This document shows positions 8,176-55,686 of a stretch of 64,000 nt of DNA, one piece after another (position 1 is the stretch's first letter; every line of letters starts with the position of its first letter). The position numbers and the translations under genes are program-made. The stretch is from positions 16,284-80,283 of the forward strand of contig CAYSZW010000004.1 of the NCBI GenBank assembly GCA_964435665.1, written 5' to 3'. Source of the DNA: an uncultured Gammaproteobacteria bacterium. GTDB taxonomy: Bacteria > Patescibacteriota > Microgenomatia > UBA1406 > GWC2-37-13. Under the pieces are notes generated by a model. That model was not told where the DNA came from, did no database searches, and was given only the letters and a program-made list of their open reading frames with translations.

Positions 8176-8432
8176 TAAACCGTATGTCACGTTTGTTATC
8201 TTTAATTTTTTTACTATTACTTCCCGTCATATTCCTTTTTGACTTACTTGTTTTCTTTGGTACAAAAATGAATATAACCTGTTTAACGTGCGAGTTGCCT
8301 AACTATTTTAGAACGTCATCTTTATCTTTTGTGGTATTAAGCCAGAGTTTTGAGACGTTTTTAAAAAGAAAGATACAGTAGTCTATTGTTAAGTTTTTGA
8401 TTAATAAAATTGATCTTTTAATTAGGTCAAAA

Positions 8433-8441
8433 TGATATAAT
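8433..8441 (+). promoter_or_regulatory. Extended -10 (TGaTATAAT) ending 6 nt before the ATG of the 1347-aa gene
   Basis: TG is at 8433-8434, TATAAT at 8436-8441 and the ATG at 8448, which is the predicted +1. There is no SD-like purine run in between. Confidence 0.4.
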
Positions 8442-8447
8442 TATTAT

Positions 8448-11400
8448 ATGGCAGAAAATGAAGGTCGTTCACCGGCACCATTGGAAACACAGATAAAACA
8501 AGGATTTTCTTTAGAATGGGCCAAGGCAGATAGTGCAGATAAAAAGAAATCTCTCATGCAGCGGATAATGCAGAGGATTCGTGATATGGTTACTAAAGCA
8601 GATGAGTCTGAGAAAAATAAAACTGAAACTTCAGAAAAAGAAGCAAAAGAAGCTAAACAAGAAGCTGCTAAATCTGTTATTGAGTTTTTTCAATTTTTAA
8701 CTGGGAATGTGGGTCAAGTTTTAGATCCAGAAACTCTTAAGTCTCTTCCATTAAATGAATCACAAGTTTCATTTCTTCAAAATTTAGGGAAAATGAATCA
8801 AAATCAAGAATCTGCCGGATTAATTTCACAAATTGTAAAAAAAACTATAGATAATCCGGATTACCTAACTCTCTCCAAGCCTGGTGATCCAACAAAGTCT
8901 CAACTAGAACAAGATTTTGAAAAAGTTAAAAGTAATGAGCGTGCAAAGCACTATTTTATCTTAGGTTTAACAAAATTAGCAGCAGAAGGTAAGCTAAAAG
9001 ATGCAGAAGGAAAAAATCTTTCGATAGATGATGTAAATGCAAGATTCCCATATGTGAATGAAGAGAGCACAGAAACCAATAGTAAATCACAAACTGAAAA
9101 ACAAAACACACAAAATCGTGTGGAAGATGAGACAGAAGAATTTAATTTACCTCCAAGTCAACAAGGTAGAGGATTTGGTCGTAAACGAAATAAGGCAGAG
9201 GATCCAGTAAGATTAGCACGATATAAAGATATAATGGACAGATTGCGTAAAATTGATGATGTCCAATCTGTAGAGTTAAATGCAAAATTAGAAGCCAATA
9301 GACAAGCGATAAAAGATCTAGAAGAAAAAAATTTATCTAAAGAACAAAAACAACAAGAATATACAAAACTAAGTGAGGAACAAGCTGATCTGGATGAAGA
9401 GTCAAAAGTTCATTTTGATCAAGTTAATGAAGCTTTAAACTATTTAATAACTGGAGAATTTACTGGTTCGCCAGAAGAGAAAGCACAGATAGAACAATTT
9501 ATAAAAGACCGATTAAACAATCAAGATCCTGCATATTTGAATGAAGTTAAAGCTTTTATGCAAGAAGGTACAGGAACTCTTGATGGGACGTATGAAGGAT
9601 ATCAAGATTTAGCTGATAAAGTTAACAGTGACTATACAACCGAAGCTATTAAAACAAGAATAATAAAAAATGGGAGGATAGATTTGGAAGCTATACAAAG
9701 ATTGCAGGCAGATATTGAAGATGATATTGGCGTACTGTTCGAAACACTTTACAATAGTCCTAAAGGAAGTTTCGAAGAATCTTTTTCTTCCTATTCAGAA
9801 GGTCAAATGCTACGTAAAATAACACAACATTTAAGAGTTCAGATAAATCGCATATTGGAGGAAGTCCCTCGAGATAAAAGAGATCAGTTTAAACAAATAT
9901 TTAATGACATGATCATATCTCCAATTCAGCGTAGACCAGCATTAGAACGTATAGTACATCAGTATCAACAAGTTGGTGCAACTATTGATTTAGAAAAGTT
10001 ACGTGATATTTTGAAGACATACAATATATCATCTTTACAAGAATTTTATAACGATGATCTAAGTGCAACGATTAATGATTTAATGCCTTCATTTGTACAA
10101 CATTTATTTATTAAAAATGGAAATGAAATGATTAATAATTTTTTTCAGCTTGTTCAAGAGGAAGAAGAGATTGACAGTAAGATTGTTTTTGGGAAAAATG
10201 AAGGACGTAGGTCTAAAAAATTTGTTCTGAAATATAGACAAGAGTGTATAGATTATATGCACACTGTTATTAATGCTGCAAACAGAGCAAAAGGTAATAC
10301 TGATGAAATTTCTAAAGATCGAATAAATGCCCGTTTTTCTCGTGCATATCTGGATAATTTCCTTTTAACTTTACGAGGAATAAAAGTAATGTCTAAAGCA
10401 AATCCTATGTTCGAAAAATTCGGAGATCTGCCTTTCGCAAGCTTAATTACAGGAATTTTTAATCCATTAGCTGGATGGGGAAAGTTTGGACATAGAGGTC
10501 GTGGTCACCAAGAAAGTGGAGATGCAGAAACTACAGAATTTTCTGGTATGAATAACTTTGCTTTTAATGAAATTGCTGCACAAGAATATATTAAAAAATA
10601 TGGAGATGTATTTGACAATTTTCATCCGGCTGAGATGAAAAAAGAAGGTGATAAGAGAGTAATGTTTCAAGTATATCCAGACAATAAACAACTCATGGAA
10701 GATTTGAAAACAGGCCGTTGGGATGCATATTACACCATGGATGAAGTGTATAAGGGTATGGTTTTTGGAAATATAATCGATCAGCAATATTGGCCGTTTG
10801 CAGGGTTTAATAAAGTAGTACTACCACGTTTAGCGAAAGAATTATATAAGAAAGAACTAAACGAATTATCTAGGCAAGAGGCATTAGAGCTTAAATATCG
10901 TACTTCTGGGGTTGTTACTGCGTTTTGGAATGTGGAAGGGTATGCTTCTGATGATACAGAAAATATGTTTGTTCGTTATCAATATAATCAAGAAATTGCA
11001 AAAGAATTTGCTTCACGTATTAAGACAATGGGCCGAGAATTAACAGAAGAAGAAAGAAAGGTAATAAAGGAAGAGATTGTGGCTAAAAAAAAATATGAGT
11101 TTAGCAATATGGATTGGATTAAAGAAACAGCAAAATATACTAAAGGAGAAAAGCGTTTTGACAAAATTTTTGATGTGAAAATGGAAGGTAAAGACTCAAA
11201 AGTTGCTTTCCGTGAGTACAGAATGCATAGATTTAATTCATTAAAAGGAGAAGTGTTTCATCAGTTGTTATTAAAAGATCCAAATGCTTGGCTTGCAGAA
11301 ATGGTGCAAACATATCCTGAATTGGCTAAAGGTAAAGTACCATATACAGATAATAATGGTATAAACCATGAAGTTACTGCATCTGAGTTCTATTTTAATC

Positions 11401-12491
11401 TAGATGCAATACCAGATAGTTCTATACCAAAAGATCTCAAAGTTCAAAGAGATAGATTCCGTTTTAAAATACTCACCAAATTTAGAGGAAAAGAAGGAGA
11501 TTATTTAAGTAATGTGCCACATTTAAAAAAAATCATGGATTTTTATACCAAATTATATGAGACAGAATCTGACAAAGATACAGCACTCCTTAAATTAAGC
11601 GAAAATCTTACTACTGCGCGACAAATTGCAGTACAAGGTAGTGAATCTGCAATTAAAGATAATTATATAACGGATGATAATATTAGATCTTTAATGTTTG
11701 ATAAAAATGATGGCCTTATAACTTACTTTAATAATATGGTTGGAGGGGATGATAAAGAAAAACGCAAGAAATACTTTGGAGATGGAGAGCACGATTTAGG
11801 TGAAGTTAATGGATTTTATCAACGTTGGTCTTTTTCTAAAGAACAAGATAATCAATCAAATATTCTTCCAGAAGGAGATACAAACATGAAATATTTATTG
11901 GAAGTAAACGAAAATCCACAAGCATTAGATAGACGTCTAGGTACAGATATGGCTTTTGTTAAAGCTCAGGAAGTACTTAATAAAGTTCCAAGTGTTTGTA
12001 AAAAAGCAGCAGATTCAGATAATTTTGATTCTTGGTATGGAACAATTGAAGAACTTCACAAAGAAATGGCTGTTATTGCAGACGAGGATCAAGGTAAAGA
12101 ACAAAAATATCAGCAACTACTTTATCAGACCATATGTAATTGGTTCTCACTTGATAGCGATACTGAGAAAATGTTTATTGGTTTCTTAAATCAAATGAAG
12201 CTGGGTACAGACGCTTCTATGGCTAATTTAAAGTCTAAAAATATGTCTAAGTTTGTTCTCGATCAAGATAGTAGAAGGGAATATTTAATAAGATTACAGG
12301 ATAGAGCATATCTCAAAGGTAATTATGATGCAATTGGCGGTTGGGGTTTTGATACTGCTGAATTAGTTGCTGGAGTGAGCATGGCCGAGATATTTAGAAA
12401 ACAAGCTGTCTATGCTTTAATAGGAGCTGCTATTGTTACGGTTGCTACGGCTATTAAAGAAGGATATGAAGAGGAAATAGATGAGGATTAA
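8448..12491 (+). CDS. Giant (1347 aa) orphan protein, charged/helical, with a single C-terminal TM helix (tail-anchored topology)
   Basis: Long uninterrupted ORF. There is no N-terminal signal peptide and no Walker A or HExxH motif was found by eye. The only hydrophobic segment is AVYALIGAAIVTVATAI near the C-terminus, followed by an acidic tail. Confidence 0.7.
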   Translation: MAENEGRSPAPLETQIKQGFSLEWAKADSADKKKSLMQRIMQRIRDMVTKADESEKNKTETSEKEAKEAKQEAAKSVIEFFQFLTGNVGQVLDPETLKSLPLNESQVSFLQNLGKMNQNQESAGLISQIVKKTIDNPDYLTLSKPGDPTKSQLEQDFEKVKSNERAKHYFILGLTKLAAEGKLKDAEGKNLSIDDVNARFPYVNEESTETNSKSQTEKQNTQNRVEDETEEFNLPPSQQGRGFGRKRNKAEDPVRLARYKDIMDRLRKIDDVQSVELNAKLEANRQAIKDLEEKNLSKEQKQQEYTKLSEEQADLDEESKVHFDQVNEALNYLITGEFTGSPEEKAQIEQFIKDRLNNQDPAYLNEVKAFMQEGTGTLDGTYEGYQDLADKVNSDYTTEAIKTRIIKNGRIDLEAIQRLQADIEDDIGVLFETLYNSPKGSFEESFSSYSEGQMLRKITQHLRVQINRILEEVPRDKRDQFKQIFNDMIISPIQRRPALERIVHQYQQVGATIDLEKLRDILKTYNISSLQEFYNDDLSATINDLMPSFVQHLFIKNGNEMINNFFQLVQEEEEIDSKIVFGKNEGRRSKKFVLKYRQECIDYMHTVINAANRAKGNTDEISKDRINARFSRAYLDNFLLTLRGIKVMSKANPMFEKFGDLPFASLITGIFNPLAGWGKFGHRGRGHQESGDAETTEFSGMNNFAFNEIAAQEYIKKYGDVFDNFHPAEMKKEGDKRVMFQVYPDNKQLMEDLKTGRWDAYYTMDEVYKGMVFGNIIDQQYWPFAGFNKVVLPRLAKELYKKELNELSRQEALELKYRTSGVVTAFWNVEGYASDDTENMFVRYQYNQEIAKEFASRIKTMGRELTEEERKVIKEEIVAKKKYEFSNMDWIKETAKYTKGEKRFDKIFDVKMEGKDSKVAFREYRMHRFNSLKGEVFHQLLLKDPNAWLAEMVQTYPELAKGKVPYTDNNGINHEVTASEFYFNLDAIPDSSIPKDLKVQRDRFRFKILTKFRGKEGDYLSNVPHLKKIMDFYTKLYETESDKDTALLKLSENLTTARQIAVQGSESAIKDNYITDDNIRSLMFDKNDGLITYFNNMVGGDDKEKRKKYFGDGEHDLGEVNGFYQRWSFSKEQDNQSNILPEGDTNMKYLLEVNENPQALDRRLGTDMAFVKAQEVLNKVPSVCKKAADSDNFDSWYGTIEELHKEMAVIADEDQGKEQKYQQLLYQTICNWFSLDSDTEKMFIGFLNQMKLGTDASMANLKSKNMSKFVLDQDSRREYLIRLQDRAYLKGNYDAIGGWGFDTAELVAGVSMAEIFRKQAVYALIGAAIVTVATAIKEGYEEEIDED

Positions 12492-12502
12492 AAAACTCCT
12501 AA

Positions 12503-12530
12503 TAGACAACTTCTAGAGAATAAGTATAAT
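12503..12530 (+). promoter_or_regulatory. Putative promoter TAGACA-16-TATAAT with the ATG at predicted +1
   Basis: The -35-like element is at 12503-12508 and a perfect TATAAT at 12525-12530. The spacer gaaatt is 6 nt and the ATG is at 12537. Confidence 0.45.
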
Positions 12531-12536
12531 GAAATT

Positions 12537-14177
12537 ATGGTGAAACGTTTTTTGCTTCTCTTATTAACTCTTGTAACTTTTTTCATGCTTACCTCCGTTA
12601 GTAGCGCAAATACTATAGATCCTCAAGATAGTAAAATAAAAAATTGTTTTGATACCGCTCCTGGTAATTATCTTGAATCTTATAATGCTGAAACCTATAA
12701 TCAAAATTTATTTGATTGTTTGAAGCGCGATTTAGTTCCAGACCATCCAACTTGGCAATGTGAATCATCCATTGATTGTCCGATTAAATTTGCAGAATCA
12801 GTTTGCGCAGAAGTTAATAATAGAATTTGGTATAGAAGAAATGTCTTTGTACAAAAATGTGAAACTTTAAAAGATCAATATCAAACTTTGTTTATAGAAA
12901 AAAATAAACTCGCACCCACTGTAGCACCAACTCCTACTCCAACAATAAATCAGAGTATTACCCCCACTCCAACCGCTATAACTAATAGTGTTTCAGCTAG
13001 TGATGAATGTATAGCTCTTATTACTCAAGATTGTCGTACAACTATGATTGCTCTGGATCGTTGTTACAATAATTTAAATGCAGGTAGTGGCGTTTGGTCA
13101 TGTCTGGATGAAAATAATCAAGATGTAGCAGATGCCAGATGTAAGGCATCTTTTACGAATCGTATTAGACAAAATGTCTATTCTAAATTTAATGAATACT
13201 GTGATGGGAACTATACTACGAGTGACACTCCTATAGGTAGTGGTGGCGTAAATGTATCACGAATTATTAACTATAGTACTTTAAGTGAGATATTTGATAA
13301 AAAGCTTAATATTAGAAGAAATAATGCTTTAGATCCATTTGATTTAGGACCAACTCCATATCCACCTACTCCAGCTATAATTGATAATAGATATTTAGAA
13401 AATTTAGTTATCCAAGATGATTTGGCTACCGATTCTGAATTGCTAGAGGATGCAAAAGAAACATTAACTTGTGGTTTTGCTGGAGTTGAGGGTAAAAATG
13501 TATGTTGCAGTAATACTATTAAAGATATAACTCCGAGTTTAAGCGGACAAGATGCTATAGCTCCACAAATAGATTGTGGATTTTGGCAAGGTGTATTTGG
13601 TGTTTGTGATCTGCCAGATTTTAGCCAACTTGCCAAAGATAAATTTACTGAATATTTTGAACAAAATAACATTGTTGGCAGTTTAAATGAATATATTGAT
13701 AAACAAGGTGAATTGCCACAATGTTTTATTGGAGTCCCTTCTACATCGACAGCTGCTGTATCTGCTATAAATGTAGCACCTGTATGTACATGTGAATTTG
13801 AGTCTGCTGCAGCTATTTGTCAACGTTATATTGATACTGATGACACAGATGCGTTAGCGAAGTGTAACACCTGTATGCAAAATAATGATATAGATGAAAA
13901 GAATTTTTATACGGCTCTAGGATGTATTGATACTAGTATAGATGGAATTATTACAATGGTATTTACTTTGGGATTAGGAATTTCTGGTACAACTGCTTTA
14001 TTTTGTATTATCTATGCAGCTTTTATTATGCAAACTTCTCAAAATAATCCAGAAAGGATACAAAAAGCACAAGAAACAATTACTTCTTGTATAACGGGAT
14101 TAATTCTAATTATTTTCTCAATATTTATTCTTCGTGTTATAGGAGTAGACTTGTTACGGATACCTGGATTTGGTTGA
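12537..14177 (+). CDS. Secreted Cys-rich protein with a PT-rich linker and a C-terminal T4SS-pilin-like (TrbC/VirB2-like) two-TM module
   Basis: Signal peptide MVKRFLLLLLTLVTFFMLTSVSSA, numerous Cys residues and a linker APTVAPTPTPT...TPTPTA. The C-terminal ~90 aa (nt ~13899-14177) form two TM helices around a polar loop (SQNNPERIQKAQETITS) and align with the 110-aa protein at 23881. Confidence 0.7.
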   Translation: MVKRFLLLLLTLVTFFMLTSVSSANTIDPQDSKIKNCFDTAPGNYLESYNAETYNQNLFDCLKRDLVPDHPTWQCESSIDCPIKFAESVCAEVNNRIWYRRNVFVQKCETLKDQYQTLFIEKNKLAPTVAPTPTPTINQSITPTPTAITNSVSASDECIALITQDCRTTMIALDRCYNNLNAGSGVWSCLDENNQDVADARCKASFTNRIRQNVYSKFNEYCDGNYTTSDTPIGSGGVNVSRIINYSTLSEIFDKKLNIRRNNALDPFDLGPTPYPPTPAIIDNRYLENLVIQDDLATDSELLEDAKETLTCGFAGVEGKNVCCSNTIKDITPSLSGQDAIAPQIDCGFWQGVFGVCDLPDFSQLAKDKFTEYFEQNNIVGSLNEYIDKQGELPQCFIGVPSTSTAAVSAINVAPVCTCEFESAAAICQRYIDTDDTDALAKCNTCMQNNDIDEKNFYTALGCIDTSIDGIITMVFTLGLGISGTTALFCIIYAAFIMQTSQNNPERIQKAQETITSCITGLILIIFSIFILRVIGVDLLRIPGFG

Positions 14178-14274
14178 TAGTTCACTATTCCATTATATAT
14201 ACTTAAATTAATGAGTATACAATTTTAGTGAGCTCAATTCAAAAAAGATATTTACAAGAGAAATCTTTGTTATA

Positions 14275-15999
14275 TTAGGTACTTCTATCTTGAAGTGCTT
14301 CACGAATTGAATCGCTTGGATTTTCTGCTTTTAAGAAGTTTATAACCCTGCCAAACCCAGTAGCACCTTCTTCTTTATATTGTCCAAATTCACTTAAAAA
14401 GGATCTCGATCTTGTTAATAATCCCATCCCTCCTGCCAGTGCGACTCCAGCTCCACCAAGTAATTTGCCTGGAGTAATATTAAATGGTAAGTCTTCAACT
14501 CCAAATGTTTTCTTCACAAAGGCTATCATATCCGGTATTAAGAAAATTATACTAATAGCTACTAACATAACAAATCCATTAGCTTCAATTGAATAAAGAA
14601 AAGGTGGTCTCCACAATTCTCGATCTAAATTAAATACTCCATATAATGGCGCAGTAGAAGATATATTAGATATCATGCCAGCCGTCATTATAAGAATTGC
14701 TACCAAAGGAAAAGTGAGTAAGTTAAAAAACAATCCTTTAATCCAGTATGCAAATGTATTTCTTTCTGGCAATGCTTCAAACATAAGGATAAATGGTGAA
14801 AAAATAATTGAAATTAATATTTTTGTATAAGTAATAAACAGAAGGAAAAAGATTCTAAAGAATAAAAATAAAGTTGTGACAAAAACAAAGAAACTTAAAA
14901 TTAAGGGGAAAAGTATGCCCATTAATAATCCAAAAACAGCAAATGAAATAATTGCACCTATTCCAGTAGCTAACCATCCACCTATAACTGGAACAGGTCT
15001 AAGAATGTTTCCAGTAACAAAGTCATGTACTTGAGGATGTAAATTTAATATCAGAAACACAACGCCACTAAGTACTGTTCTTAATGTAAATTGTAATTCA
15101 TAAGGTACTAATGAAAGAATAGCTGAACCAGATTTCCAGATATCACCGTTGCCCACGACTTTACCAAATAAATTCCAACCAGTAGTATTAAAGATATCAC
15201 CTGCTGTAGCAGTAATATTAGCATTATTAATAGGTTGAGCCCATCCTAATGCAATAGCTACTTCTCTGGTGCTTACTGTATCAGTAGCAATATTCTGAAC
15301 AATAATACTACCTCCTAAACCCATAATTACATACATAATATCAATCAGGAACCCAGCTATTGGAAAGGAGAATGTAATAAGTATTAATGCCAATACAATT
15401 CTTGGTATTGCATTTTCTATTGCGATCACAGTTTGAGGGTTAATATTAGCTCTAAACATTATCATAAAGCCTATGCTAATCACTACAAGTACAAGTAATA
15501 AATAGGAAACATTTCTAAATATTTTCCAGATAGGTGCGAGAGGTTGTAATGAATAAAAACCAATACCTTGTGCATATGTCTGTGGTACAAATCCAGCTTC
15601 TTGCATACCTTCATAAGCCCATAAAACTCCTGAAGCAGGTGGATTGGCATATGGAGCAACGAAAATATTAGAAGCTTTAGTAACAAAACTTCGTTCAATG
15701 TAAGGTGCAGCTTCATCAGGATTATCAGTACAAGTTTCTCCTAAAGTTAAGCATAGAAATCCACTATATACAGCTAGTTGAGATTTCGTAATATCATCTT
15801 TTTGAAATTGAGGACTAGCAATGAAATCATAAAGCTCCATACGACTTTGTTCATATGCACTACTATGCAGTGTTATTTTATCTTTATTCATGAAGTATGC
15901 AAAAAGATAAAAAATAGTTATAAAAACGGAGATTATTATGGTGGCATTTCTCAGATAAAGGAGCCAAGTTCGGACAGCAGTATCTGCATTTTTAAACAT
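14275..15999 (-). CDS. Polytopic integral membrane protein (roughly 8-10 TM helices); VirB6/TrbL-like topology is a hypothesis only
   Basis: 574 aa. After the first TM there is an extracytoplasmic loop of ~130 aa, then densely packed hydrophobic helices. It is the last gene of the minus-strand operon 18665->14275. Confidence 0.6.
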   Translation of the reverse strand: MFKNADTAVRTWLLYLRNATIIISVFITIFYLFAYFMNKDKITLHSSAYEQSRMELYDFIASPQFQKDDITKSQLAVYSGFLCLTLGETCTDNPDEAAPYIERSFVTKASNIFVAPYANPPASGVLWAYEGMQEAGFVPQTYAQGIGFYSLQPLAPIWKIFRNVSYLLLVLVVISIGFMIMFRANINPQTVIAIENAIPRIVLALILITFSFPIAGFLIDIMYVIMGLGGSIIVQNIATDTVSTREVAIALGWAQPINNANITATAGDIFNTTGWNLFGKVVGNGDIWKSGSAILSLVPYELQFTLRTVLSGVVFLILNLHPQVHDFVTGNILRPVPVIGGWLATGIGAIISFAVFGLLMGILFPLILSFFVFVTTLFLFFRIFFLLFITYTKILISIIFSPFILMFEALPERNTFAYWIKGLFFNLLTFPLVAILIMTAGMISNISSTAPLYGVFNLDRELWRPPFLYSIEANGFVMLVAISIIFLIPDMIAFVKKTFGVEDLPFNITPGKLLGGAGVALAGGMGLLTRSRSFLSEFGQYKEEGATGFGRVINFLKAENPSDSIREALQDRST

Positions 16000-16035
16000 A
16001 GATTCATTCTACTGAATTTGCGTTATGAAAGTCAA

Positions 16036-16473
16036 TTACTCTTGTACCTCAGAGACTTCTACCCTTGGTGGAAGTGTAACTTGGTCAAGTGTGCGGTATT
16101 CAATTTTATATAAATCTTGATTTATATTTAAGTCTGTAAAGAAACGATTTACAGTCTGTACTGCAGCATTTTGATCACCTTGAAAATAAATAAGAAAGGT
16201 TCCACTTCTACTTTTATATTCCACAGTTATATCTTCAAATTTAATTGGATACAGTAATTCATTACGAATTTCTGGTGCGAGAGTTGGCACTATATAGTTA
16301 ATAACAACTGGTGTAATAGTGGGCAATGGTGAAGGTGTTACTGTAATAGGTAAACCATCTGGTCCTGTAGTCATTTGTAGTCTACTAATCATTACATAAA
16401 GAAATATGATTAATAGAATAATGCCGCCAATAATTAATATATATTTTTTATTATTCATATCTATAAAGTACAT
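16036..16473 (-). CDS. Small N-terminally TM-anchored protein (cassette partner of the SLT-like hydrolase)
   Basis: One TM helix (YILIIGGIILLIIFLYVMI), a Pro/Thr linker and a ~90-aa domain. The architecture parallels the ORF at 17360-17821. An alternative start at 16458 removes the overlap with the upstream gene. Confidence 0.6.
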   Translation of the reverse strand: MYFIDMNNKKYILIIGGIILLIIFLYVMISRLQMTTGPDGLPITVTPSPLPTITPVVINYIVPTLAPEIRNELLYPIKFEDITVEYKSRSGTFLIYFQGDQNAAVQTVNRFFTDLNINQDLYKIEYRTLDQVTLPPRVEVSEVQE

Positions 16474-17363
16474 TGGTGAATTATAAATTCACAATACGTA
16501 CGATTTCCTAAATGTTGAAATGGAGTTTTACATTCTCCAAAGTATCTTTTGCCAGCTTGAAAAATTGCATTTTGATCCCAATTCCTATTACCTGCTTGGG
16601 TTCCACTATCTTGTTTAAGTTTTTTTGCTGCAGCAAAAGTGCTGTCTCGTAAGTTACATACATTTGATTGATGACTGGCTCCATCATATTGATTTACCGC
16701 ATTGCCATATGAACCCCATGCATTAGGGCAAGAATTTAAACATTTTCCATTCCAACAGCATCGATTGCAAGAAGTTGAACCTCGTTCATCTGTTCCAATA
16801 GTCATTTGCATATGGCCTGCTGCAGAACAAGAATTCCATGGACAGTTTGGGATTTTTTGTCCAGGTTGAATATATTGATTAACTTGTTCAGGCGTATATT
16901 TTAAAACTGGAGTATATTCCATGTATGAAATTGCTTCAATAACACAGGTAGGAACTGAAACTTTTTGCCCGACATAATCATAAAAAGTTTGTATAGCTGT
17001 AAATGTTTGGTCTACCGGTTTTCCTCCAGGTGTTTGTGATGGAATAACATTTGTTGGAAATGGTGTTAATGAATTAAGTGGAGTTGGAATTGATGAAGGA
17101 TTTGTAGATGGCCCTGTAGAGTTGTTTCTAGGAGTACCTTCTGATCCATTCGTTCCACCTGTTGGTCTTTTAAAAAAAATATCTAAAAAATCTTCAAAAA
17201 TTTCATTAGAAGTTTTTTGCGTATCTCCAGGATTATAACAACGACCATCACCACTATCCATACAAGGTCTATCCGGGTTTTCCAGAGAGCCTGGCTGAGC
17301 AAATACAATATTATGTGAAAAAATAAATAAAATTAAGAGTAATAGAGTAATAATGTATTTCAT
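16461..17363 (-). CDS. Secreted Cys-rich protein: shared N-terminal module plus a lysozyme-like / SLT-like (lytic transglycosylase) C-terminal domain
   Basis: Signal peptide. The module [41 protein letters not shown] is shared with the 292-aa paralog. EAISYMEY ... SAAGHMQMT ... AGKRYFG resemble SLT motifs I-III (ES / GLMQ / AYNAG). The SLT call is motif-level only. Confidence 0.5.
   Translation of the reverse strand: MKYIITLLLLILFIFSHNIVFAQPGSLENPDRPCMDSGDGRCYNPGDTQKTSNEIFEDFLDIFFKRPTGGTNGSEGTPRNNSTGPSTNPSSIPTPLNSLTPFPTNVIPSQTPGGKPVDQTFTAIQTFYDYVGQKVSVPTCVIEAISYMEYTPVLKYTPEQVNQYIQPGQKIPNCPWNSCSAAGHMQMTIGTDERGSTSCNRCCWNGKCLNSCPNAWGSYGNAVNQYDGASHQSNVCNLRDSTFAAAKKLKQDSGTQAGNRNWDQNAIFQAGKRYFGECKTPFQHLGNRTYCEFIIHQCTL
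17172..17300. repeat. 129-nt repeat copy A (encodes the shared N-terminal module of the 300-aa protein)
   Basis: Aligned by eye to 18471-18599 with 10 mismatches in 129 nt (~92% identity) and no gaps. Flanking coding sequence is unrelated. Confidence 0.85.
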
Positions 17364-17821
17364 AAAGTTGACATTTCCATTATATTAAACTTCTCTTGAG
17401 GAATAGCTGAGAACTGGGCATTTATAAATGAATTAAAGTTATTTCTTGACTCAGTAATTGGATCTAAAATAATGACATCATATTGAAAGGTTTCGTAGTT
17501 ATATGTAATAGTAAAACCATTTCCATTAAATGGAGAAAGTTTATATAGTTCGGTATTTTGGTCAATTTCTGCTTGTTCTTCTGTGGTAAATTCTGGTTCC
17601 ACAAATCCTGTAAAATCTCCAGTTACTTCTGGTGTAGGAGCTTGTCCAATTGGAATAATTGAATTAGTACTACCTCCATTACGATTCATACTGAATAGAA
17701 GGGTAGCAATAAGTAATATAACTACAAATATAATTAAAGTAATAATAATTATTTTTTTATATTTTAAAATTGTATCTTGGTCCATATTATTTTCTTCTAA
17801 CTGCAGCTGCAAATGTAACAA
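17360..17821 (-). CDS. Small N-terminally TM-anchored protein (cassette partner of the C39-like peptidase)
   Basis: One TM helix (IIIITLIIFVVILLIATLLF) followed by a ~100-aa domain. A 4-nt ATGA overlap joins it to the downstream gene. An alternative start at 17785 (MDQDTILKYKK) lies 1 nt after the upstream stop. Confidence 0.6.
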   Translation of the reverse strand: MLHLQLQLEENNMDQDTILKYKKIIIITLIIFVVILLIATLLFSMNRNGGSTNSIIPIGQAPTPEVTGDFTGFVEPEFTTEEQAEIDQNTELYKLSPFNGNGFTITYNYETFQYDVIILDPITESRNNFNSFINAQFSAIPQEKFNIMEMSTL

Positions 17822-18665
17822 CTTGTAAATCTTTTATATATCTGTAATTTAATGGTCTTGTGTTACGGTCACCAAAAGTTGAATCTAATCCATAAATATC
17901 ATACTCTTTTCCATTTTTTACAATGTTTGTGATAACAAAAAAATGACCAACAGTTTTATTACCTAATGTAAAATTACCACCAGCTAAGATCCAAGAACCT
18001 GATTTTACAAATGGCATTAAATTATCTGCTACTTCTTGTGGTGTTCCTTTTTGAAAACCTGGAACTATTTCTGAGCGAAAACCTTCACCATTTAGAGCAA
18101 ACATTGCACCTTGAAGAGTACTTCCAGCACAGCTTGCATATCTCGTTTCACCATATTTTGAACCATAATATTTTGAAATAATACTCGGAGGTGTCGCATT
18201 AGGGTCTCCAAGATTAGCAACAATATTAGATACAGCAGAAGGTCCACAACCTGCATAGCAGATACTACAGCCATCCGGCATCATGATACTTTTATAATCA
18301 CATTGACGATTCATAATGTAACTACCTGGAACTGGAGTCGCAACAGGTGATAAGTTAGGTGTTGTTTGGTTAGGGAATTGTGTAGCACCAGATGGTCGAG
18401 GTGTTAATGTATTATTAGATCCGGAGTTATTTGTTGGATTAGAACTAGAGCCATCATTTTTAGGAGGTTTAAAAAAAATATCTAAAAAATCTTCAAAAAT
18501 TTCATTAGAAGTTTTTTTCTTATCTCCAGGATTATAACAACGACCATCACCACTATCCATACAAGGTCGATTGGGATTTTCCAGATTGTCAGGCTGAGCC
18601 AAAATTAAATTGGGGCTTAGGAAAAGTAAGAAAATAGAGATTGTGAATATAACTAATAGTTTCAT
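17787..18665 (-). CDS. Secreted protein: shared N-terminal module plus a papain-fold Cys peptidase (Peptidase_C39_2 / CHAP-like) domain
   Basis: Signal peptide and the same module as the 300-aa protein. Candidate Cys-His-Asp triad: [25 protein letters not shown]. The pattern also matches the C-terminal domain of the FtsEX-linked hydrolase at 54417. Confidence 0.55.
18471..18599. repeat. 129-nt repeat copy B (encodes the shared N-terminal module of the 292-aa protein)
   Basis: About 92% identical to 17172-17300. Confidence 0.85.
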
Positions 18666-18666
18666 G

Positions 18667-18695
18667 TTGACTTTTATAAAATACTTTCACATAAT
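18667..18695 (+). promoter_or_regulatory. Putative promoter TTGACT-17-CATAAT with the ATG at predicted +1
   Basis: The -35 is at 18667-18672 and the -10 at 18690-18695, with a 6-nt spacer to the ATG at 18702. It sits in the 36-nt divergent gap next to the minus-strand operon start (18665). Confidence 0.45.
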
Positions 18696-18701
18696 GAATA
18701 C

Positions 18702-21700
18702 ATGTCGAACATGTTTGATTTTATACGAAAAAAGCCATCTAATGCAAATCCAAATGGAGATGTATCAATAAATACAAATTCTCAAGTAAGTTCTGTGAGT
18801 GATACGCCACAGCCAATATCGGCACCAGTAACTCAATCATATAATGGTATTGGAAACCCACCAAGTGGACAGTCATTTAATGGAATTGGTACTCCACCAA
18901 ACGGCCAGTCATACAATGGTATCGGAAATCCTCCACAAGGTAATTCTTATAATGGTATTGGATCAACACCATCCGGACAAGATCCATATAACGGTGTAGG
19001 TTCAGCTCCAGCACCAAAAATGAATGACACCATGTCATCCCCTTCAAATGGACAAGATAGCAATGGTTCTATGAAACCAAAAGAAGATAAACCTGTATTT
19101 GATCAAATGCCAAAAGAAAAGAATGAATGGCAAGGTTTAGATTCATCAAAAAAAGATGCTAATCAAAATAAACCAACCGATCAAAAATCTAATAATCAAA
19201 GCGCAGATCAAAATAAACAATCAATGAATAATAATCAAAATGCACAAAAAGATCAAAATAATAAAAATCAGGATCAAAAGAATGTAGATAATAAAAATAA
19301 TTCTAATGCTCCAAAAGGTGATGCTCTTAAATCAAATATAAATGATAAAAAGCGAAATGATTTAGATATCATGACACACTTAACACAACGATCTAATAAA
19401 GTATTTTTAGAAGCAAATAATAAAGCAAAAGAATTAAAAAACACGTATGTTGATAGTGAACATTTATTACATGGATTACTTTCTGATGGAGAAATATATA
19501 ATGCATTTGTTGAATTAAAAATTCAACCTCAACTAATTGAACAAGAATTAGATAAGGTATATAAAAAAGAAACTAATAATAACCCACCACAAATTGCTCC
19601 TCGTGTAAAACAGATAATCAGTAATTCTCTAATTGTTGCACGTAAAATGGGTTATGAATTTATTTCACCAGAACATTTGTTACTTGCAATGTTTGATGAA
19701 GGTGAAGGGTTAGGTGCACGAATTTTAGTAAAACTTGGCTTGAAGAAAGAAGATTTAAATAAAAAAGTAACTGGTAAAAAAGAAGGTCTTGAAGGTAAAG
19801 ATGCAAAAGCACAACAAAAAGCAAAATCTGCATTAGAACAATACACAATTGACTTAACAGCAAGAGCTGCAAATGGTGAATTAGATCCAGTTGTTGAACG
19901 ATCTGACGTTATAGAACGTGTTGTCCATATTCTTTCAAGAAGAATTAAGAATAATCCTGCACTTATTGGAGAACCAGGTGTTGGTAAAACCGCTGTGGTA
20001 GAAGGGCTCGCAGAACGTATTGTTGCAAAACAAGTTCCAGAAAGTCTTTTAAACAAAAGAATTCTCCAATTAGATTTAGCAGGAGTCGTTGCTGGAGCCT
20101 CTCATAGAGGAGAATTTGAAGAGCGAATGAAAAATATTGTTGATGAACTTAAGGGTGCAAAAGGCGAAATAATTATGTTTATTGATGAAATGCACATGAT
20201 GATGGGTGCTGGCGGTGGAGATGGCACAATTGATGCTTCAAATTTTATAAAACCTGCTCTTGCCCGTGGTGAAGTTCAGTTTATTGGTGCAACTACCATT
20301 ACAGAATATAGAAAATATATAGAAAAAGATGCCGCTCTTGAACGAAGATTTCAAACAGTAGTTGTTCCTGAACCTTCACAAGAAGCAGCAATTAAAATGT
20401 TAAAGGCTGCAAAAGATAAGTACGAAGCATTTCATAAAGTCAAAATTCCAGAAGAAACAATCGAATTAGCAGTCAAACTTTCAAAAAGATATATTGGAGA
20501 TCGTTTCCTTCCAGATAAGGCATTTGATCTTATGGATGAAGCAGCAGCGGCAGTTAGATTACCATTAATTTCATTACCAGAAGAGATTCAATCGTTAGAA
20601 ACGCGTATCGCACAAATTCAACAAGAAGTTGATGAAGCAGAAAAAGGCGGGGAAAAAGTGAAAGCAAGAATAGGTCGCTCAAAAATTGATGATGTAAAAG
20701 CAACACTAAAGTCAAAGCAAGATGAATATAACATGAAGAAAGCCAGTACAACTACAGAAGTAACAGATGAAATTGTTAAAGATATAGTTGCAAAACGAAC
20801 TGGAATTCCTGTTTCAAGAATTTCTTCAACAGAAGGAGATAAATTAGTTAATTTAGAAGATATCATTCACAAACGAATGATTGATCAAGAAAATGCTGTT
20901 AAGTCTGTCTCACAAGCTATTAGAAGAGGACGAGCAGGATTAAAGTCAACAAATAGACCAATTGGAAGTTTTGTATTCCTAGGACCAACAGGTGTAGGTA
21001 AAACAGAACTAGCAAAAACAGTCTCAGAAGTGCTTTTTGATGAAGATGATGCAGTAATCCGTTTTGACATGACAGAATATATGGAACGTCATGAAGTTGC
21101 AAAACTTCTTGGACCTCCTCCAGGTTATGTTGGATATGAAGAAGGTGGAAAGCTTACAGAAATGGTTCGCAGAAAACCTTATTCCGTAGTCTTATTTGAC
21201 GAGGTAGAAAAAGCACATCCAGATATTTTCAATATCTTACTTCAAATTTTGGATGATGGACGTTTAACTGATAATAAAGGTCGAACAATTTCATTCAAAA
21301 ACACTGTTGTTATTTGTACTTCAAACATTGGTACAAAACTTATTCAAGAAGAAATGCTTAAGAGTGGAAAAACTGAAGTAAGTGAACCAACAATGATGTC
21401 TACATATGTATTTACGCCAAGAGGTAGAGAATTATTAACTATTGGTAACAAGTACTTTGAAAGAGATGGAGGCAATGTACAAGCATTAAATGCCCAAATG
21501 GATGCTTCAAAACAGCCACAACAAGCAGATGCAAAACCAGAAGATGCAACAAAAGCACCAACATCATCATGGGCTAATCACCAATTGAATGAATATTTTG
21601 CAGGACAAAAAGTTGAAGGTAAAATGCCTGAACCAATTAAAGAAGAAACTCAAGCAAATCCTGATGAACCAGCAACAGAAAAACCATTAGAAGAATTACC

Positions 21701-23039
21701 TGAAAAACCAAATGAGTCAATGAAGTCAGTTGGCTTTCCAATGATGGGTTACGATACACATGCAATTGCTGCAAATGGTTTAGAAATTGTCACAAAAGGC
21801 AATACACTATTCTCACGAAGTGCAACAACTGCAAAAGTATGGAATGTAACATCTCTTATAGAATATTTTAAAGATGGTGTTGTCATTAATGCTTTACCAG
21901 ATGCACCAGATGAACAATTGCCAACTGTTAAATTAAAAACACATGCTTTTAGTCCTACTGAAGAAGAAATCGTTACATTTAAAGACAGATATTGGAAAAG
22001 AAAAACAAATTCTACAGATTGGGAAACAGGTTACTTAAAAGATTATTTTAAAGATCAACCAATAACAGGAGAAATGACTCTTCCAACAACACATTGGGAT
22101 ATCCATACATTCTCACCTAATGGAAAAGAAGTAATTATAGTAGCAAATGATATTTGGTTTAGAGAAGGTACAGGTCCATGGAAGAAACAAGCATTAACTG
22201 AATATTTTGGAAAAGATTTCCCATTAGAACAAGAAGTAAATGCAAACCAAAAGGTAGAAGAAGAAAACGATACAAAGAAATATTCTCTTATTAAAGATAA
22301 GGTAATGAATGAACTCTTGAAGTTTTTCCGACCAGAGCTTGTAAATCGTTTTGATGAAGTTATTATCTTTGAGCCACTTAAGTTTATTCACATGATTGAG
22401 ATTGTTAAACTACAACTCAAAGGTTTAACCAAACTATTAGAAGAACAAGAATTAGGTTTTTCAGCAACAGATTCAGCTATTAAAGAAATTGTCCGTTCTG
22501 GTTTTGATCCAATCTTTGGAGCTCGACCATTACGAAGAGCAATTCAAAAATTAGTTGAGAATCCAATTTCAGAATTAATTATTGCTAAAAAAGTAACAGC
22601 AGGAGATACAATTATTGTTGATTTTAATGGTGAAGAATTTGTATTTAATGTTGAACACACAGAGCGAAAAGCAGTTTCAGGTGAAACCAAATCTGAAGGT
22701 ACAAATAAAGATGAAGTTGAAAAAATGTTTTTCTGTGAAAAATGTGCAAATACATTTACCACAAAAGTAAAATCTAATGCAACAACTGTCTGTTCAAAAT
22801 GTGCAAATAAAAATGTAACAGAAATTTCTGACCAATCACAACAAACAGTAAAAGATGCAACAACAGAAAAAAAGAATGAAGCAAAAACAGATATGAATTC
22901 TACTGCAGATCAAAAGAATTCACAGAATCCTATGAGTTCAGGTTCAAACGATATGAATACAATGCCATCAATGAATCCTACACCAAATACTCAAAATTCT
23001 GGAGATACAATGAATCAGCAGATGAATACCATGTCATAA
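18702..23039 (+). CDS. Atypical ClpC/ClpB-family double-AAA+ protein (1445 aa) with low-complexity termini, a large repeat insertion in D2 and a C-terminal zinc ribbon
   Basis: Clp_N repeats ([19 protein letters not shown]). D1 Walker A GEPGVGKT and Walker B MFIDEMH. Short ClpC-length M-domain. D2 Walker [13 protein letters not shown], Walker [11 protein letters not shown] and sensor-1 [10 protein letters not shown]2-small [18 protein letters not shown] and [10 protein letters not shown]. Insertion of ~316 aa at nt 21333-22277. CxxC...CxxC at 22731-22812. Confidence 0.85.
18837..19010 (+). repeat. In-frame 36-nt tandem repeat (12-aa unit S-Y/F-N-G-I-G-x-P-P-x-G-Q), 4 full copies plus 1 degenerate
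   Basis: Translation: [58 protein letters not shown]. Confidence 0.85.
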
Positions 23040-23046
23040 TGAACGT

Positions 23047-23193
23047 ATGGCCGATTTTACTCCATTAAACATATCATCTTTGCAGAAAAAGTTTGAAAAT
23101 GATGGTGGACTAAACACTATTCTTATTGTATTGGCTGTTGCGACAATGGGAGTTGTAGGATTTATTGTCTATCTTTTATCTTCTAAGTATTGA
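23047..23193 (+). CDS. Possible 48-aa single-pass membrane protein
   Basis: MADFTPLNISSLQKKFENDGGLNTILIVLAVATMGVVGFIVYLLSSKY. It begins 7 nt after the Clp-like stop, has one clear TM helix and is below the ORF-track cutoff. Confidence 0.35.
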   Translation: MADFTPLNISSLQKKFENDGGLNTILIVLAVATMGVVGFIVYLLSSKY

Positions 23194-23204
23194 TAAAATT
23201 ATAT

Positions 23205-23879
23205 ATGGACTGGGTTTTTTTTGTATTGTTTTGTATTCAACTAATTGTGCTTTTTTTTATCTCAAGACTTAGCATTCGGTATATTTTTTATTTGCTTCGT
23301 TCTTTTACCTCTAGTGATACTATTGTATATTCTTCAATTGCATTCTTATTTCTTCCAGGAACTATATTGCATGAACTAAGTCATTTTTTAATGGCAATAG
23401 TGTTGTTATTAAAAGTACGAGAAATACATATTTTTCCACAATGGGAACAGAATTATATTAAATTAGGTAGAGTTCTTTATGAAAAAAAAGATGTATTTAG
23501 AAGCATACTTGTGGGTATAGCTCCCATAATTGTAGGATTATTATTTTTTTGGTGGCTTAGTATATTAAATGTACTTCAGATAGAAGATATAATTTTAAAA
23601 ATAATTATTTTTTATATTATTTTTGTCATTTCTTCGACTATGTTTTCTTCTCAACAAGATTTAGTTGATCTTATTTATGTTATTCCAATAGTTATTATTG
23701 TTGCAATAATTCAATATTTTTTCCCAATAAATTTTTCATTTATAACTTCACAAGAAACTATTATGAAAAGTATTAATACTTTTATATATGATATTAATTG
23801 GTATTTATTTATTTCAACATGTATACATGCAGTACTGGTTAGTGTAATATTTATACTATTACGATTATTAAAAAAATAA
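23205..23879 (+). CDS. Polytopic membrane protein with an HExxH motif (putative intramembrane/zincin-like metallopeptidase)
   Basis: HELSHFLMA lies at the edge of a TM helix and there are ~5-6 hydrophobic helices. The ATG at 23205 is preferred over the listed TTG at 23190. Confidence 0.45.
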   Translation: MDWVFFVLFCIQLIVLFFISRLSIRYIFYLLRSFTSSDTIVYSSIAFLFLPGTILHELSHFLMAIVLLLKVREIHIFPQWEQNYIKLGRVLYEKKDVFRSILVGIAPIIVGLLFFWWLSILNVLQIEDIILKIIIFYIIFVISSTMFSSQQDLVDLIYVIPIVIIVAIIQYFFPINFSFITSQETIMKSINTFIYDINWYLFISTCIHAVLVSVIFILLRLLKK

Positions 23880-23880
23880 T

Positions 23881-24213
23881 ATGAACAATACTCTTGCTCA
23901 AGGTTTACAGATTCAACCAAAAGGTGGTGCAGCTGTTACTGTAACAGGTCCACTTGAAGGAATTAATAATTTAGGTGATTTAATTAATGTTCTCATGTCC
24001 TTTTTAGTACCTTTTGCTGGTATTATTCTCTTTTTTATTCTTATCTGGGGAGGATACGATATTTTAATGTCTCAAGGAGAAGCTGATAAAGTAGAATCAG
24101 GAAAAAATAAAATTACTGCTGGAATTATTGGTATTGTATTGCTTGTTCTTTCTTACTTAATTACCAATCTATTTGGATATATATTTGGACTAGATAGAAG
24201 TTTTTTTCAATAA
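23881..24213 (+). CDS. T4SS-pilin-like (TrbC/VirB2-type) small membrane protein
   Basis: 110 aa. Two TM helices flank a polar loop (SQGEADKVESGKNKITAG). It aligns with the C-terminus of the 546-aa protein through shared I[WY]..[YF]....SQ.......K..IT..I.G..L...S. Confidence 0.55.
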   Translation: MNNTLAQGLQIQPKGGAAVTVTGPLEGINNLGDLINVLMSFLVPFAGIILFFILIWGGYDILMSQGEADKVESGKNKITAGIIGIVLLVLSYLITNLFGYIFGLDRSFFQ

Positions 24214-24221
24214 GGAAGAAA

Positions 24222-25055
24222 TTAGAGATTATATTCTTTAATGGCCTTTTCGTAGTTATCTGGATTGCCTACATCATACCATTTGCCAGAAAATACAAAT
24301 CCACTTACTTTTTGTTGATTTACTAAATCTTGAATTACATCTTCTAATGCAAATTTATTCTTTTTTGGAAAGTAATTAAAAATTTCTGGACTAAAAGCAT
24401 AAATACCACTATGAATTAAGTGGCTTCGCAGTCCTGGTGCAGTTGTATTTGGATAAAATCCAATAAGTTTTGTTCCATGTAAATTAAATTGTCCGTATTC
24501 TCGAGGTTCTGTAGCACTTGATAATGCGACAGAAGCCAAAGCATCTTCTTTTTGGTGAAATGCGATAAAATCTGTATAAGAAAAATCTGTCAAAATATCT
24601 CCATGGATAACGAGGAATGTTTCGTTACCAATTTTATCTTTAACCTTTTTAATCGCACCACCAGTTAATAAATTTTCTTCTTCTTCTGAATACTGAATTT
24701 TTACACCAAATTGTTCGCCATTACCAAAATATGTCTTAATCTTTTCACCTAAATAACTTATTGCAATAATAAGATCGGTAACATTATGTTTTTTTAATTG
24801 TTTAATAAGATGTTCAAGAATTGGTGTTCCTTTTACAGGAAGCATTGGTTTTGGAATTTCGTAGGTATATGGTCGAAGTTGAGTTCCACGGCCGCCTGCA
24901 AGAATAATCGCTTTATGTACATTGGATTCTGTATACTTATTTAAGACAAATTCAATTGCGTGGGAACGGTTGCGAATTTTGTTTTTGTCGATAAGTAAAT
25001 CAACCTTTTTAAGTAGTTGACTATCGAGTGTTATAGTAATACGAGATCTCCTCAT
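24222..25055 (-). CDS. Sugar-phosphate nucleotidyltransferase with an N-terminal ribbon-helix-helix (CopG-like) domain
   Basis: RITITLDSQLLKKVDLLID...RSHAIEFVLNKY follows the RHH pattern (strand-helix-helix). AIILAGGRGTQLRPYTYEIPKPMLPV is the NTP_transferase signature. Confidence 0.75.
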   Translation of the reverse strand: MRRSRITITLDSQLLKKVDLLIDKNKIRNRSHAIEFVLNKYTESNVHKAIILAGGRGTQLRPYTYEIPKPMLPVKGTPILEHLIKQLKKHNVTDLIIAISYLGEKIKTYFGNGEQFGVKIQYSEEEENLLTGGAIKKVKDKIGNETFLVIHGDILTDFSYTDFIAFHQKEDALASVALSSATEPREYGQFNLHGTKLIGFYPNTTAPGLRSHLIHSGIYAFSPEIFNYFPKKNKFALEDVIQDLVNQQKVSGFVFSGKWYDVGNPDNYEKAIKEYNL

Positions 25056-29656: not shown

Positions 29657-29662
29657 CATTGA

Positions 29663-55640: not shown

Positions 55641-55646
55641 AGGATC

Positions 55647-55652
55647 ATTGTA
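55647..55652 (-). promoter_or_regulatory. -10-like hexamer TACAAT ending 6 nt before the ATG at 55640
   Basis: The reverse complement of 55647-55652 is TACAAT. This supports the M28 start of the hydrolase gene. Confidence 0.3.
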
Positions 55653-55686
55653 GTGGAAATTACATACCGAGGCAAGTTCAGAATGC

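Follow-up and report, generated by a model that had tools for sequence, protein, structure and literature searches.

Positions 8184-24213 of a 64,000-nucleotide stretch of Microgenomatia DNA (contig CAYSZW010000004.1 of assembly GCA_964435665.1; the whole stretch is called the window below) carry a conserved cluster of envelope genes. We interpret this region, with a probability of about 0.55, as the Microgenomatia-specific form of those parts of the chromosomal type IV secretion system (T4SS)-like apparatus of Patescibacteria that belong to the membrane and the wall; the apparatus would be dispersed here and have its motor ATPase encoded elsewhere in the genome. A previous interpretation of the same DNA, made from the letters alone and referred to here as the sequence-only reading, had compared the part list with a T4SS module of monoderm type. 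The resemblance holds for the VirB2-like pilins, for a polytopic membrane protein whose best structural match is VirB6, and for the wall hydrolases. All open reading frames (ORFs) named in that reading were recovered in our ORF map with the same coordinates and lengths, given in nucleotides (nt) and amino acids (aa). The features of the cluster are as follows.

8184-8381, plus strand: 65-aa membrane protein with one helix, whose gene comes right after jag and before the giant gene (ORF).
8448-12491, plus strand: 1347-aa giant orphan protein, hydrophilic and mostly helical, with one C-terminal hydrophobic helix (ORF).
12537-14177, plus strand: 546-aa secreted protein with a signal peptide, 26 Cys and a C-terminal two-helix VirB2-like pilin module at residues 466-535 (PF18895).
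14275-15999, minus strand: 574-aa polytopic membrane protein with about nine hydrophobic segments, candidate divergent VirB6-like channel subunit (AlphaFold2 (AF2) and Foldseek).
16036-16473, minus strand: 145-aa bitopic protein in which a Pro-rich linker joins the N-terminal anchor to an outside domain of about 75 aa (small anchored family).
16461-17363, minus strand: 300-aa protein, secreted and rich in Cys (14), probably with a lytic transglycosylase domain of SLT type (weak SLT support).
17360-17821, minus strand: 153-aa bitopic protein, second member of the small anchored family (profile).
17787-18665, minus strand: 292-aa secreted papain-like peptidase of Peptidase_C39_2 type, probable cell-wall peptidase (orthologues match PF13529).
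18666-18701, no strand: divergent intergenic gap of 36 nt, with TTGACT-17-CATAAT on the plus strand ending 6 nt before the Clp ATG.
18702-23039, plus strand: 1445-aa Hsp100 of ClpB/ClpC type with double AAA+ (Pfam, NCBIfam).
23047-23193, plus strand: 48-aa membrane peptide with one helix, encoded between the Clp and M50-like genes (homologues in 14 loci).
23190-23879, plus strand: 229-aa six-helix membrane metalloprotease, Peptidase_M50B-like, with the motif HELSH (family).
23881-24213, plus strand: 110-aa stand-alone VirB2-like pilin, a two-helix hairpin (PF18895).

The genes are tightly arrayed. On the plus strand, the genes of leucyl-tRNA synthetase (LeuRS), ribosomal protein L34 (rpmH), yidC and jag/khpB are followed by those encoding the 65-aa, 1347-aa and 546-aa proteins. 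Convergent on this trio is a minus-strand series, running from 18665 to 14275, which encodes proteins of 292, 153, 300, 145 and 574 aa. Its junctions comprise the overlaps of 35, 4 and 13 nt reported in the sequence-only reading plus a 36-nt gap; the 35-nt overlap hinges on a TTG start, and an in-frame ATG 12 codons downstream would abolish it. Beyond the divergent gap, whose size of 36 nt was likewise confirmed, the plus-strand series encodes the 1445-aa Clp-type ATPase, the 48-aa peptide, the 229-aa HExxH protein and the 110-aa protein, with a gap of 7 nt at the first junction, an overlap of 4 nt at the second and a gap of 1 nt at the third.

A total of 82 related loci (cited below by L numbers), all Microgenomatia/Roizmanbacteria-like, were fetched and every protein of the window was mapped onto them; the counts given for each feature include only the loci that reach far enough for it. 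The cluster arrangement recurs in about 80 species-level genomes and the gene order is nearly fixed in the 82 loci, which is far beyond chance. The sequence-only reading had proposed such a comparison of neighbourhoods across related genomes, and the genes proved to be co-conserved. The pilin-module gene adjoins the polytopic gene in 73 of 74 loci, in 72 of them convergently, and the giant family comes next in 52 of 58 (56 of 58 when position and size are used). A small anchored protein, of a loosely defined family, precedes the polytopic gene in 52 of 71 loci, and a C39_2 or SLT-like hydrolase is found at most six genes away in 31 of 55. The Clp gene is located less than 10 kb from the polytopic gene in 27 of 37 loci, and in two more after inversion. 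Of the 25 loci assessable for it, 24 have a pilin gene after the Clp gene in the same orientation, and the M50-like gene lies between the two in 14 of the 25.

The sequence-only reading had described the region as one unit arranged around the 36-nt gap. Instead, it consists of two separable blocks. Block A (8184-15999) prolongs the rpmH-yidC-jag operon with the 65-aa, giant and pilin-module genes, to which the polytopic gene is convergent. Block B (16036-24213) holds the small anchored proteins and wall hydrolases, divergent from the Hsp100-(M50)-pilin series. The partition follows from two observations: in L008, L014 and L030 an inversion has turned the polytopic, pilin and giant genes around as a single unit between jag and the hydrolase/Clp pair, and the same unit is kept in L029, L031 and L034, where the hydrolase, Clp, M50 and stand-alone pilin genes are not nearby.

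Two further features of the collected loci were observed. Three metagenome-assembled genomes (MAGs) each possess two copies of the polytopic/pilin-module pair (L011/L019, L047/L065 and L067/L079) with 44-68% identity, and these are either true paralogous modules or the product of mixed bins. L003, L004 and about 40 other loci come from MAG records titled 'uncultured Gammaproteobacteria' (two: Saccharibacteria) and display a fully syntenic Microgenomatia-type locus; the organism names on these records are evidently placeholders or errors.

The polytopic protein belongs to a large family, with more than 700 homologues, and relatives are present in at least 537 species-level genomes; the named homologues are all from Microgenomates, Roizmanbacteria, Woesebacteria or 'Patescibacteria group'. 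Its AF2 model, computed from a 23-sequence alignment, has a mean predicted local distance difference test score (pLDDT) of 70. In a Foldseek search of 350,542 PDB chains with this model, TrwI/VirB6 of R388 took ranks 1, 2, 4, 6 and 8. The matches to the TrwI chains 8rt9_F and 8rtd_L have E values of 0.45-0.57, a probability of 0.82 and target template-modelling (TM) scores of 0.40-0.42, and three chains of 7o3v (R388) and DotA of Legionella are further top matches. Since no match passes E 0.001, the VirB6 likeness is a lead and not a proof. VirB6/TrwI of R388 (PDB 8rt9, 8rtd, 7o3v) and PrgH of pCF10 are, like the 574-aa protein, polytopic helical inner-membrane proteins. However, the latter has twice the length of TrwI or PrgH, and its structural match to TrwI is below significance.

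Both pilin-like modules pointed out in the sequence-only reading score above the gathering cut-off of the T4SS_pilin family PF18895 (26.6 bits), and can be classified as VirB2-like pilins on this basis. The values are E 3.9e-6 and 27.3 bits for residues 466-535 of the 546-aa protein, and E 4e-8 and 33.6 bits for the 110-aa protein. The NCBIfam model of Mbov_0395 pilin-like conjugal transfer proteins gave 25.7 and 30.1 bits, respectively, below its 40-bit cut-off. The counterparts of the 546-aa protein in the relatives are usually about 250 aa long.

The third protein of block A with a wide distribution in the relatives is the giant protein. A signal peptide is absent, and the only hydrophobic helix spans residues 1320-1336, as expected for the tail-anchored protein that had been proposed; the bulk of the protein is thus predicted to be cytoplasmic. 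An iterative hidden Markov model (HMM) unites 60 of 64 positional orthologues of about 1200 aa and matches nothing else. Only 26 relatives, all of the same family, were found with HMMER among 1.84 billion representative proteins, and word-index searches, whether started from one sequence or from a 38-sequence alignment, gave only the same six proteins. The family evolves very fast, and none of 38 members has a Pfam match. An AF2 model from a 6-sequence alignment reached a pLDDT of 50.6, and Foldseek yielded generic helical-repeat proteins only. The location of the gene after that of a small membrane protein, as virB4 comes after virB3, raised the candidate of a degenerate VirB4; it was rejected because the protein has no Walker A, and the Walker A motifs in its relatives (3 of 64) are chance motifs only. 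The small membrane protein itself, of 65 aa, has homologues of 61-85 aa in the same position in 29 related loci and no family match.

Block B encodes two wall hydrolases. Among the positional orthologues of the 292-aa protein, 27 of 29 match Peptidase_C39_2 (PF13529) with a best E of 4.5e-10, and the residues Q121, C140, H241 and D261 (Gln/Cys/His/Asp) are invariant in the family. The orthologues and the catalytic set bear out the C39-like peptidase of the sequence-only reading; the window protein itself has no Pfam match below E 0.01. For the 300-aa protein, support for the SLT-like assignment is weak. The SLT domain is found in 2 of 15 orthologues (E 3e-4), with others fused to Amidase_2 or C39_2, and Glu149 is near-invariant in the family (alignment A3); in the PDB profile search, the lytic transglycosylase EmtA comes out on top at the catalytic Glu motif, but only with E 0.14. 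A VirB1-type peptidoglycan hydrolase is present in the cluster through the C39_2 family, with the SLT-like protein as the weaker case. The two hydrolases share a nearly identical N-terminal module of about 50 aa, which precedes unrelated catalytic domains (alignment with 55% identity over 106 aa, E 9e-32); it could be a common docking or targeting module.

The 145-aa and 153-aa proteins are not alike in pairwise comparison, but their HMMs match each other with E values of 2.7e-6 and 5.7e-12. A VirB8-like nature was considered for them and rejected, as they display no similarity to PrgL beyond the membrane helix. Their PDB profile matches (DotF, VirB10) span only the anchor and the Pro-rich linker, and with about 75 aa the outside domain does not reach the length of an NTF2-like domain. 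Larger members of this family carry M23, M74, M15_4, VanY, CHAP, NlpC/P60, Amidase_5 or Ig-like domains. In L003-L082, the slot between the polytopic and Clp genes is diverse as a whole, with C39_2, SLT, Amidase_2, M14, M23, M74, M15_4, VanY, CHAP, NlpC/P60 and Amidase_5, and some of its hydrolases occur in two or three tandem copies of about 400 aa. In the window, a small anchored protein comes after each hydrolase gene, a layout that recalls effector-immunity pairs. VirB1-type hydrolases of monoderm conjugation systems, such as PrgK, TraG and CwlT (SLT plus CHAP), similarly bring together transglycosylase-like and papain-like enzymes beside a channel gene. The window differs from them in having two separate Sec-exported proteins with a shared N-terminal module and C39_2 rather than CHAP, and in that the slot holds other enzyme types in the relatives.

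Southlakia epibionticum ML1 possesses an essential chromosomal T4SS (SEML1_0006-0019) beside dnaA, dnaN and recF, which encodes a lysozyme-like protein, a 1113-aa essential hypothetical protein, VirB4, PrgI, an NTF2-like protein, two membrane proteins of about 1000 aa, one of them TrbL/VirB6-like with helical-repeat domains, and six pilins of the family PF18895, the essential pilin array of this T4SS; an Hsp20 gene and tRNA-Ser come after the cluster (Wang et al. 2023, PMC10633639). This system and the window have in common the chromosomal and origin-proximal location, PF18895 pilins, wall hydrolases, a hypothetical protein of more than 1000 aa, a chaperone gene nearby and the lack of a relaxase; the large VirB6-like proteins of Southlakia have a candidate counterpart in the polytopic protein, and the order pilin, recF-like gene, tRNA-Ser in the window is that of Southlakia. 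In contrast, VirB4, a TrsD-like protein, PrgI/VirB3 and an NTF2-like protein are part of the Southlakia cluster, whereas no such ATPase, no PrgI and no NTF2-like protein was found in the window. The six tandem pilins of Southlakia also contrast with two pilin-module genes in the window, one of them fused to a large Cys-rich domain. According to the published tables, on which this comparison is based rather than on sequences, the polytopic protein of the window has half the size of its Southlakia counterpart, and the helical bulk is a separate tail-anchored protein.

The survey of Quinonero-Coronel et al. (2025, PMC12102498) describes a distinct patescibacterial VirB4 clade related to the mating-pair formation class MPF-FATA. 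Most patescibacterial T4SS clusters in the survey are without a relaxase, and the genes are chromosomal and often near dnaA, dnaN and rpmH. For Microgenomatia, it reports abundant pilin genes, a VirB3 that is not linked to VirB4, and a VirB6 that is 'scarce', 'suggesting extreme sequence divergence'. The scarcity of VirB6 and the unlinked VirB3 imply a T4SS that is dispersed in this class. In this context, the model of the polytopic protein suggests a highly diverged VirB6-type channel or platform subunit which earlier profile searches could not find in Microgenomatia.

The T4SS described there and the window share dispersed genes, VirB2-like pilins, proximity to rpmH and the lack of a relaxase. 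The survey was anchored on virB4 with 20 neighbouring genes per side, and the portions of its text consulted here make no mention of the polytopic and giant families, the hydrolase cassette or the Hsp100-M50-pilin operon. The sequence-only reading had left it undecided whether the combination had been described. Its kind, a relaxase-less, origin-proximal and pilin-bearing T4SS, is already known (PMC10633639, PMC12102498). The Microgenomatia-specific composition, namely the polytopic and giant families, the fused pilin, the hydrolase cassette and the Hsp100-M50-pilin operon, appears not to be described in the literature searched.

The cluster fits such a dispersed layout, in which it would be the hitherto unrecognised membrane and wall part of the same system, unlinked from the rest. 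The Walker-A proteins among its ORFs of at least 100 aa are an ABC-F protein, EF-G, FtsE, the Clp protein and a C39_2 hydrolase at 54417-55721, in which GSWPNGKS is a chance match. A Pfam scan of the unassigned ORFs of the window revealed no T4SS part, and a PHROGs search revealed nothing relevant. There is neither a coupling protein (VirD4/TcpA) nor a relaxase in the window, as is common in Patescibacteria (PMC12102498), and the Walker-A list and Pfam scan agree with the earlier statement that no VirB4/VirD4, relaxase or secretin is encoded in it. VirB4 or VirD4 next door, which the sequence-only reading would have taken as the mark of an ordinary T4SS, is absent within 10 kb of the polytopic gene in the 82 related loci, and so are a relaxase and a secretin. 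Of the cluster-bearing relatives, six can be checked in Table S1 of the survey, and VirB4 is present in four of them (PMC12102498). In Table S3, another Roizmanbacteria genome outside the 82 loci has VirB4 and TrsD adjacent (genes 1011-1012), and no VirB6 or VirB2 is listed for it in this table (PMC12102498).

A number of results weigh against the assignment to a dispersed T4SS. The VirB6 role comes from a sub-threshold match (E 0.45, TM 0.40) of a moderate-confidence model (pLDDT 70). No match to the polytopic family was found in Pfam and NCBIfam with 23 members each or in a PDB profile search, tblastn against 72,556 plasmids returned nothing, and hhalign gave a probability of 2% for PrgH of pCF10. 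No sequence or profile method ties the protein to VirB6, TrbL or PrgH, and so the VirB6-like channel of the sequence-only reading is retained for the best, though weak, structural match of the model and has no link at the sequence level. The role assigned to the giant protein is a guess, as it has no detectable relative outside its own family. VirB4, TrsD and a type IV coupling protein (T4CP) were not found in the window, and profiles found no VirB3/PrgI or VirB8/NTF2-like subunit among its small proteins. VirB4 elsewhere in the genome was seen for relatives only, the part of the source genome examined being the 64-kb window, and two of the six relatives, both smaller draft assemblies, are listed without VirB4 in Table S1 (PMC12102498). 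Finally, the housekeeping neighbours LeuRS, YidC, Jag and RecF are as syntenic as the cluster genes in the sampled genomes. Because all of these genomes come from one class, part of the conservation may be gene-order inertia.

This last point leads to an explanation without any single machine, in which origin-proximal envelope housekeeping genes for membrane-protein insertion, wall remodelling in growth and division, and proteostasis had their order frozen in Microgenomatia and the PF18895 proteins are small membrane hairpins with another role. It is consistent with the order of LeuRS, rpmH, YidC, Jag, amino-acid kinase and RecF, which is kept like that of the orphan genes, and with the lack of a secretion ATPase within 10 kb in the 82 loci. 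A C39_2 hydrolase also stands beside FtsEX in the window, and such enzymes have housekeeping uses; the promoter and terminator scans, each taken as a whole, did not rise above shuffled expectation. Against it, the polytopic, pilin and giant genes relocate as a block and persist without block B. The pilin family is tied to the essential T4SS of Southlakia, the best structural match of the polytopic protein is VirB6, and the catalytic variety in the hydrolase slot is far above expectation for a housekeeping enzyme. We therefore regard the housekeeping explanation as unlikely.

T4SS-type pilin genes without VirB4, T4CP and relaxase, with tRNA-Ser genes a few kb downstream, might also be left over from an integrated conjugative element that has lost its ATPases, relaxase and integrase and no longer functions as a system. 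Such decay is hardly credible here. The GC content of the cluster (0.32-0.36) matches that of the flanks, which indicates that the region is not a recent insertion, and no integrase, transposase or repeats were seen. The genes are intact, and their conservation in about 80 species (33-68% identity) reflects clear constraint, unlike the pattern of a decaying remnant.

The remaining part of block B concerns the Clp protein, in which the sequence-only reading saw an aberrant Clp ATPase and the only ATPase of the apparatus. Like the ClpB/ClpC Hsp100s, it combines two AAA+ rings with Clp_N and a D2-small domain. A low-complexity N-terminal extension of about 225 aa and a CxxC..CxxC tail are added to these. 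ClpB (TIGR03346) is the best NCBIfam model with 912 bits in three stretches, below the cut-off of 1232, and the ClpV model also scores. The spacing of 338 aa from Walker A1 to Walker A2 points to a short middle domain, which is closer to that of ClpC than of ClpB. Judged by these sequence features, the protein is an Hsp100 but not a canonical ClpB.

Between the sensor-1 and Arg-finger regions of D2 lies an insert of about 300 aa (residues ~895-1195, window 21380-22290). Direct alignment of its segments showed four tandem repeats of about 45 aa with invariant E, R, W, L and YF positions, although self-BLAST of the insert had shown no repeats. The insert is hypervariable, ranging from 37 to 566 aa at the same site in relatives, and a VGF tripeptide within it, of interest for a reading as a ClpP-docking ClpC, is confined to the closest relatives. 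The repeat-bearing hypervariable insert and the low-complexity extensions set the protein apart from ClpB and ClpC, and there is no sign of a secretion role. The modified Hsp100 is thus borne out, but its gene is linked to those of the M50-like protease and the stand-alone pilin and not to the polytopic block.

The HExxH membrane protein encoded between Clp and pilin genes was found to belong to an M50B-like family through its orthologues, of which 11 of 22 match M50B (E 5e-6) and 4 of 22 match M50. The motif PGT..HE.SH is invariant in the family (alignment A4), including HELSH, and the window protein itself has no Pfam match at E 0.1. This protease is a candidate pilin-processing or membrane quality-control enzyme.

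The sequence-only reading went further and considered a self-contained, VirB4-independent attachment or wall-breaching apparatus. In a fuller form of this idea, the insert-bearing Hsp100 would be the motor, extracting or threading pilin-module proteins, and the pairs of hydrolase and small protein would be host-directed effectors with their immunity proteins. The succession of Hsp100 and pilin genes in 24 of 25 loci and the tight junctions in the window would suit such a machine. So would the position of the four-repeat insert on the D2 face, where ClpA and ClpC carry their ClpP-docking loop, and ClpV (TssH) of type VI secretion is a precedent for an Hsp100 recruited to secretion. The small anchored protein after each hydrolase gene and the high diversity of hydrolase types can be read in the same direction.

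An insert that varies from 37 to 566 aa, and is lacking in some relatives, is hard to square with conserved docking, and block A is found without the Hsp100 block in three loci; the Hsp100 is for both reasons not regarded as the secretion motor. As VirB4 is encoded elsewhere in four of six related genomes, the missing ATPase in the window does not make the Clp protein a motor either. The hydrolases carry Sec-type signals or anchors and hence need no special exporter. Immunity is a difficult role for small proteins that are linked only via iterative profiles and whose larger family members themselves carry hydrolase domains. Taken together, an apparatus driven by the Hsp100 seems quite improbable. 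We consider it still more doubtful that the polytopic, giant and pilin-module proteins form a VirB4-independent surface apparatus in which the Hsp100 and M50 proteins extract or mature the pilins and the hydrolase/small protein pairs act as host-wall effectors with immunity. If true, it would represent a new kind of wall-breaching organelle of episymbionts, beyond a dispersed T4SS.

Under the preferred reading, a dispersed T4SS-like apparatus, the parts may work together as follows. Gene content, domain families, conservation and linkage are observed; the VirB6 and scaffold roles, the processing of pilins and the tie to a distant VirB4 are inferred. The hydrolases would make local openings in the wall, that of the cell itself or possibly that of a host. 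The polytopic protein would form the membrane base, where the pilin-module proteins may be extracted and assembled into a surface filament or conduit, with the Cys-rich domain of the 546-aa protein displayed outside. The giant protein may serve as a cytoplasmic scaffold, docked at the membrane by its tail. A VirB4/TrsD pair with its genes in another part of the genome would supply the energy. For the Hsp100 and the M50-like protease, co-expressed with the pilin, a helper function in membrane-protein quality control or pilin maturation is most likely.

Some observations concern the setting of the cluster. The putative promoter TTGACT-17-CATAAT at 18667-18695 would give a leaderless or near-leaderless Clp transcript; as it fills the 36-nt gap, there is no room there for a separate promoter of the minus-strand operon. 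The genes rpmH-yidC-jag, which usually lie near the origin of replication, are located at 6.5-8.2 kb of the window, and the cumulative GC skew has its maximum near 38 kb, where the genes turn from mostly plus to mostly minus. Downstream of the cluster, two unusual gene fusions were observed, a ribbon-helix-helix domain with NTP_transferase at 24222-25055 and an amino-acid kinase with an S-adenosylmethionine methyltransferase at 25219-26547. ARAGORN placed a tRNA-Ser with anticodon ACT at 29568-29657, which may be a miscall; a bacterial Ser tRNA with A in the wobble position would be unusual. On the minus strand at 54417-57251, a coiled-coil protein that ends in a Peptidase_C39_2 domain is encoded after FtsE and FtsX, in a slot which in other bacteria is the place of PcsB/EnvC-type division hydrolase partners.

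To our knowledge, no type IV system other than the patescibacterial T4SS is known to be essential for its bearer, and Microgenomatia are among the largest classes. For this class, the cluster provides a possible missing channel subunit, a giant partner protein that is conserved, a pilin fused to a large Cys-rich surface domain, a variable hydrolase cassette and a conserved Hsp100-M50-pilin operon. If the assignment holds, these proteins would be targets for complex prediction and cryo-tomography, and for genetics once a member of Microgenomatia is cultured, and the cluster would show how far a reduced monoderm can rebuild a T4SS.

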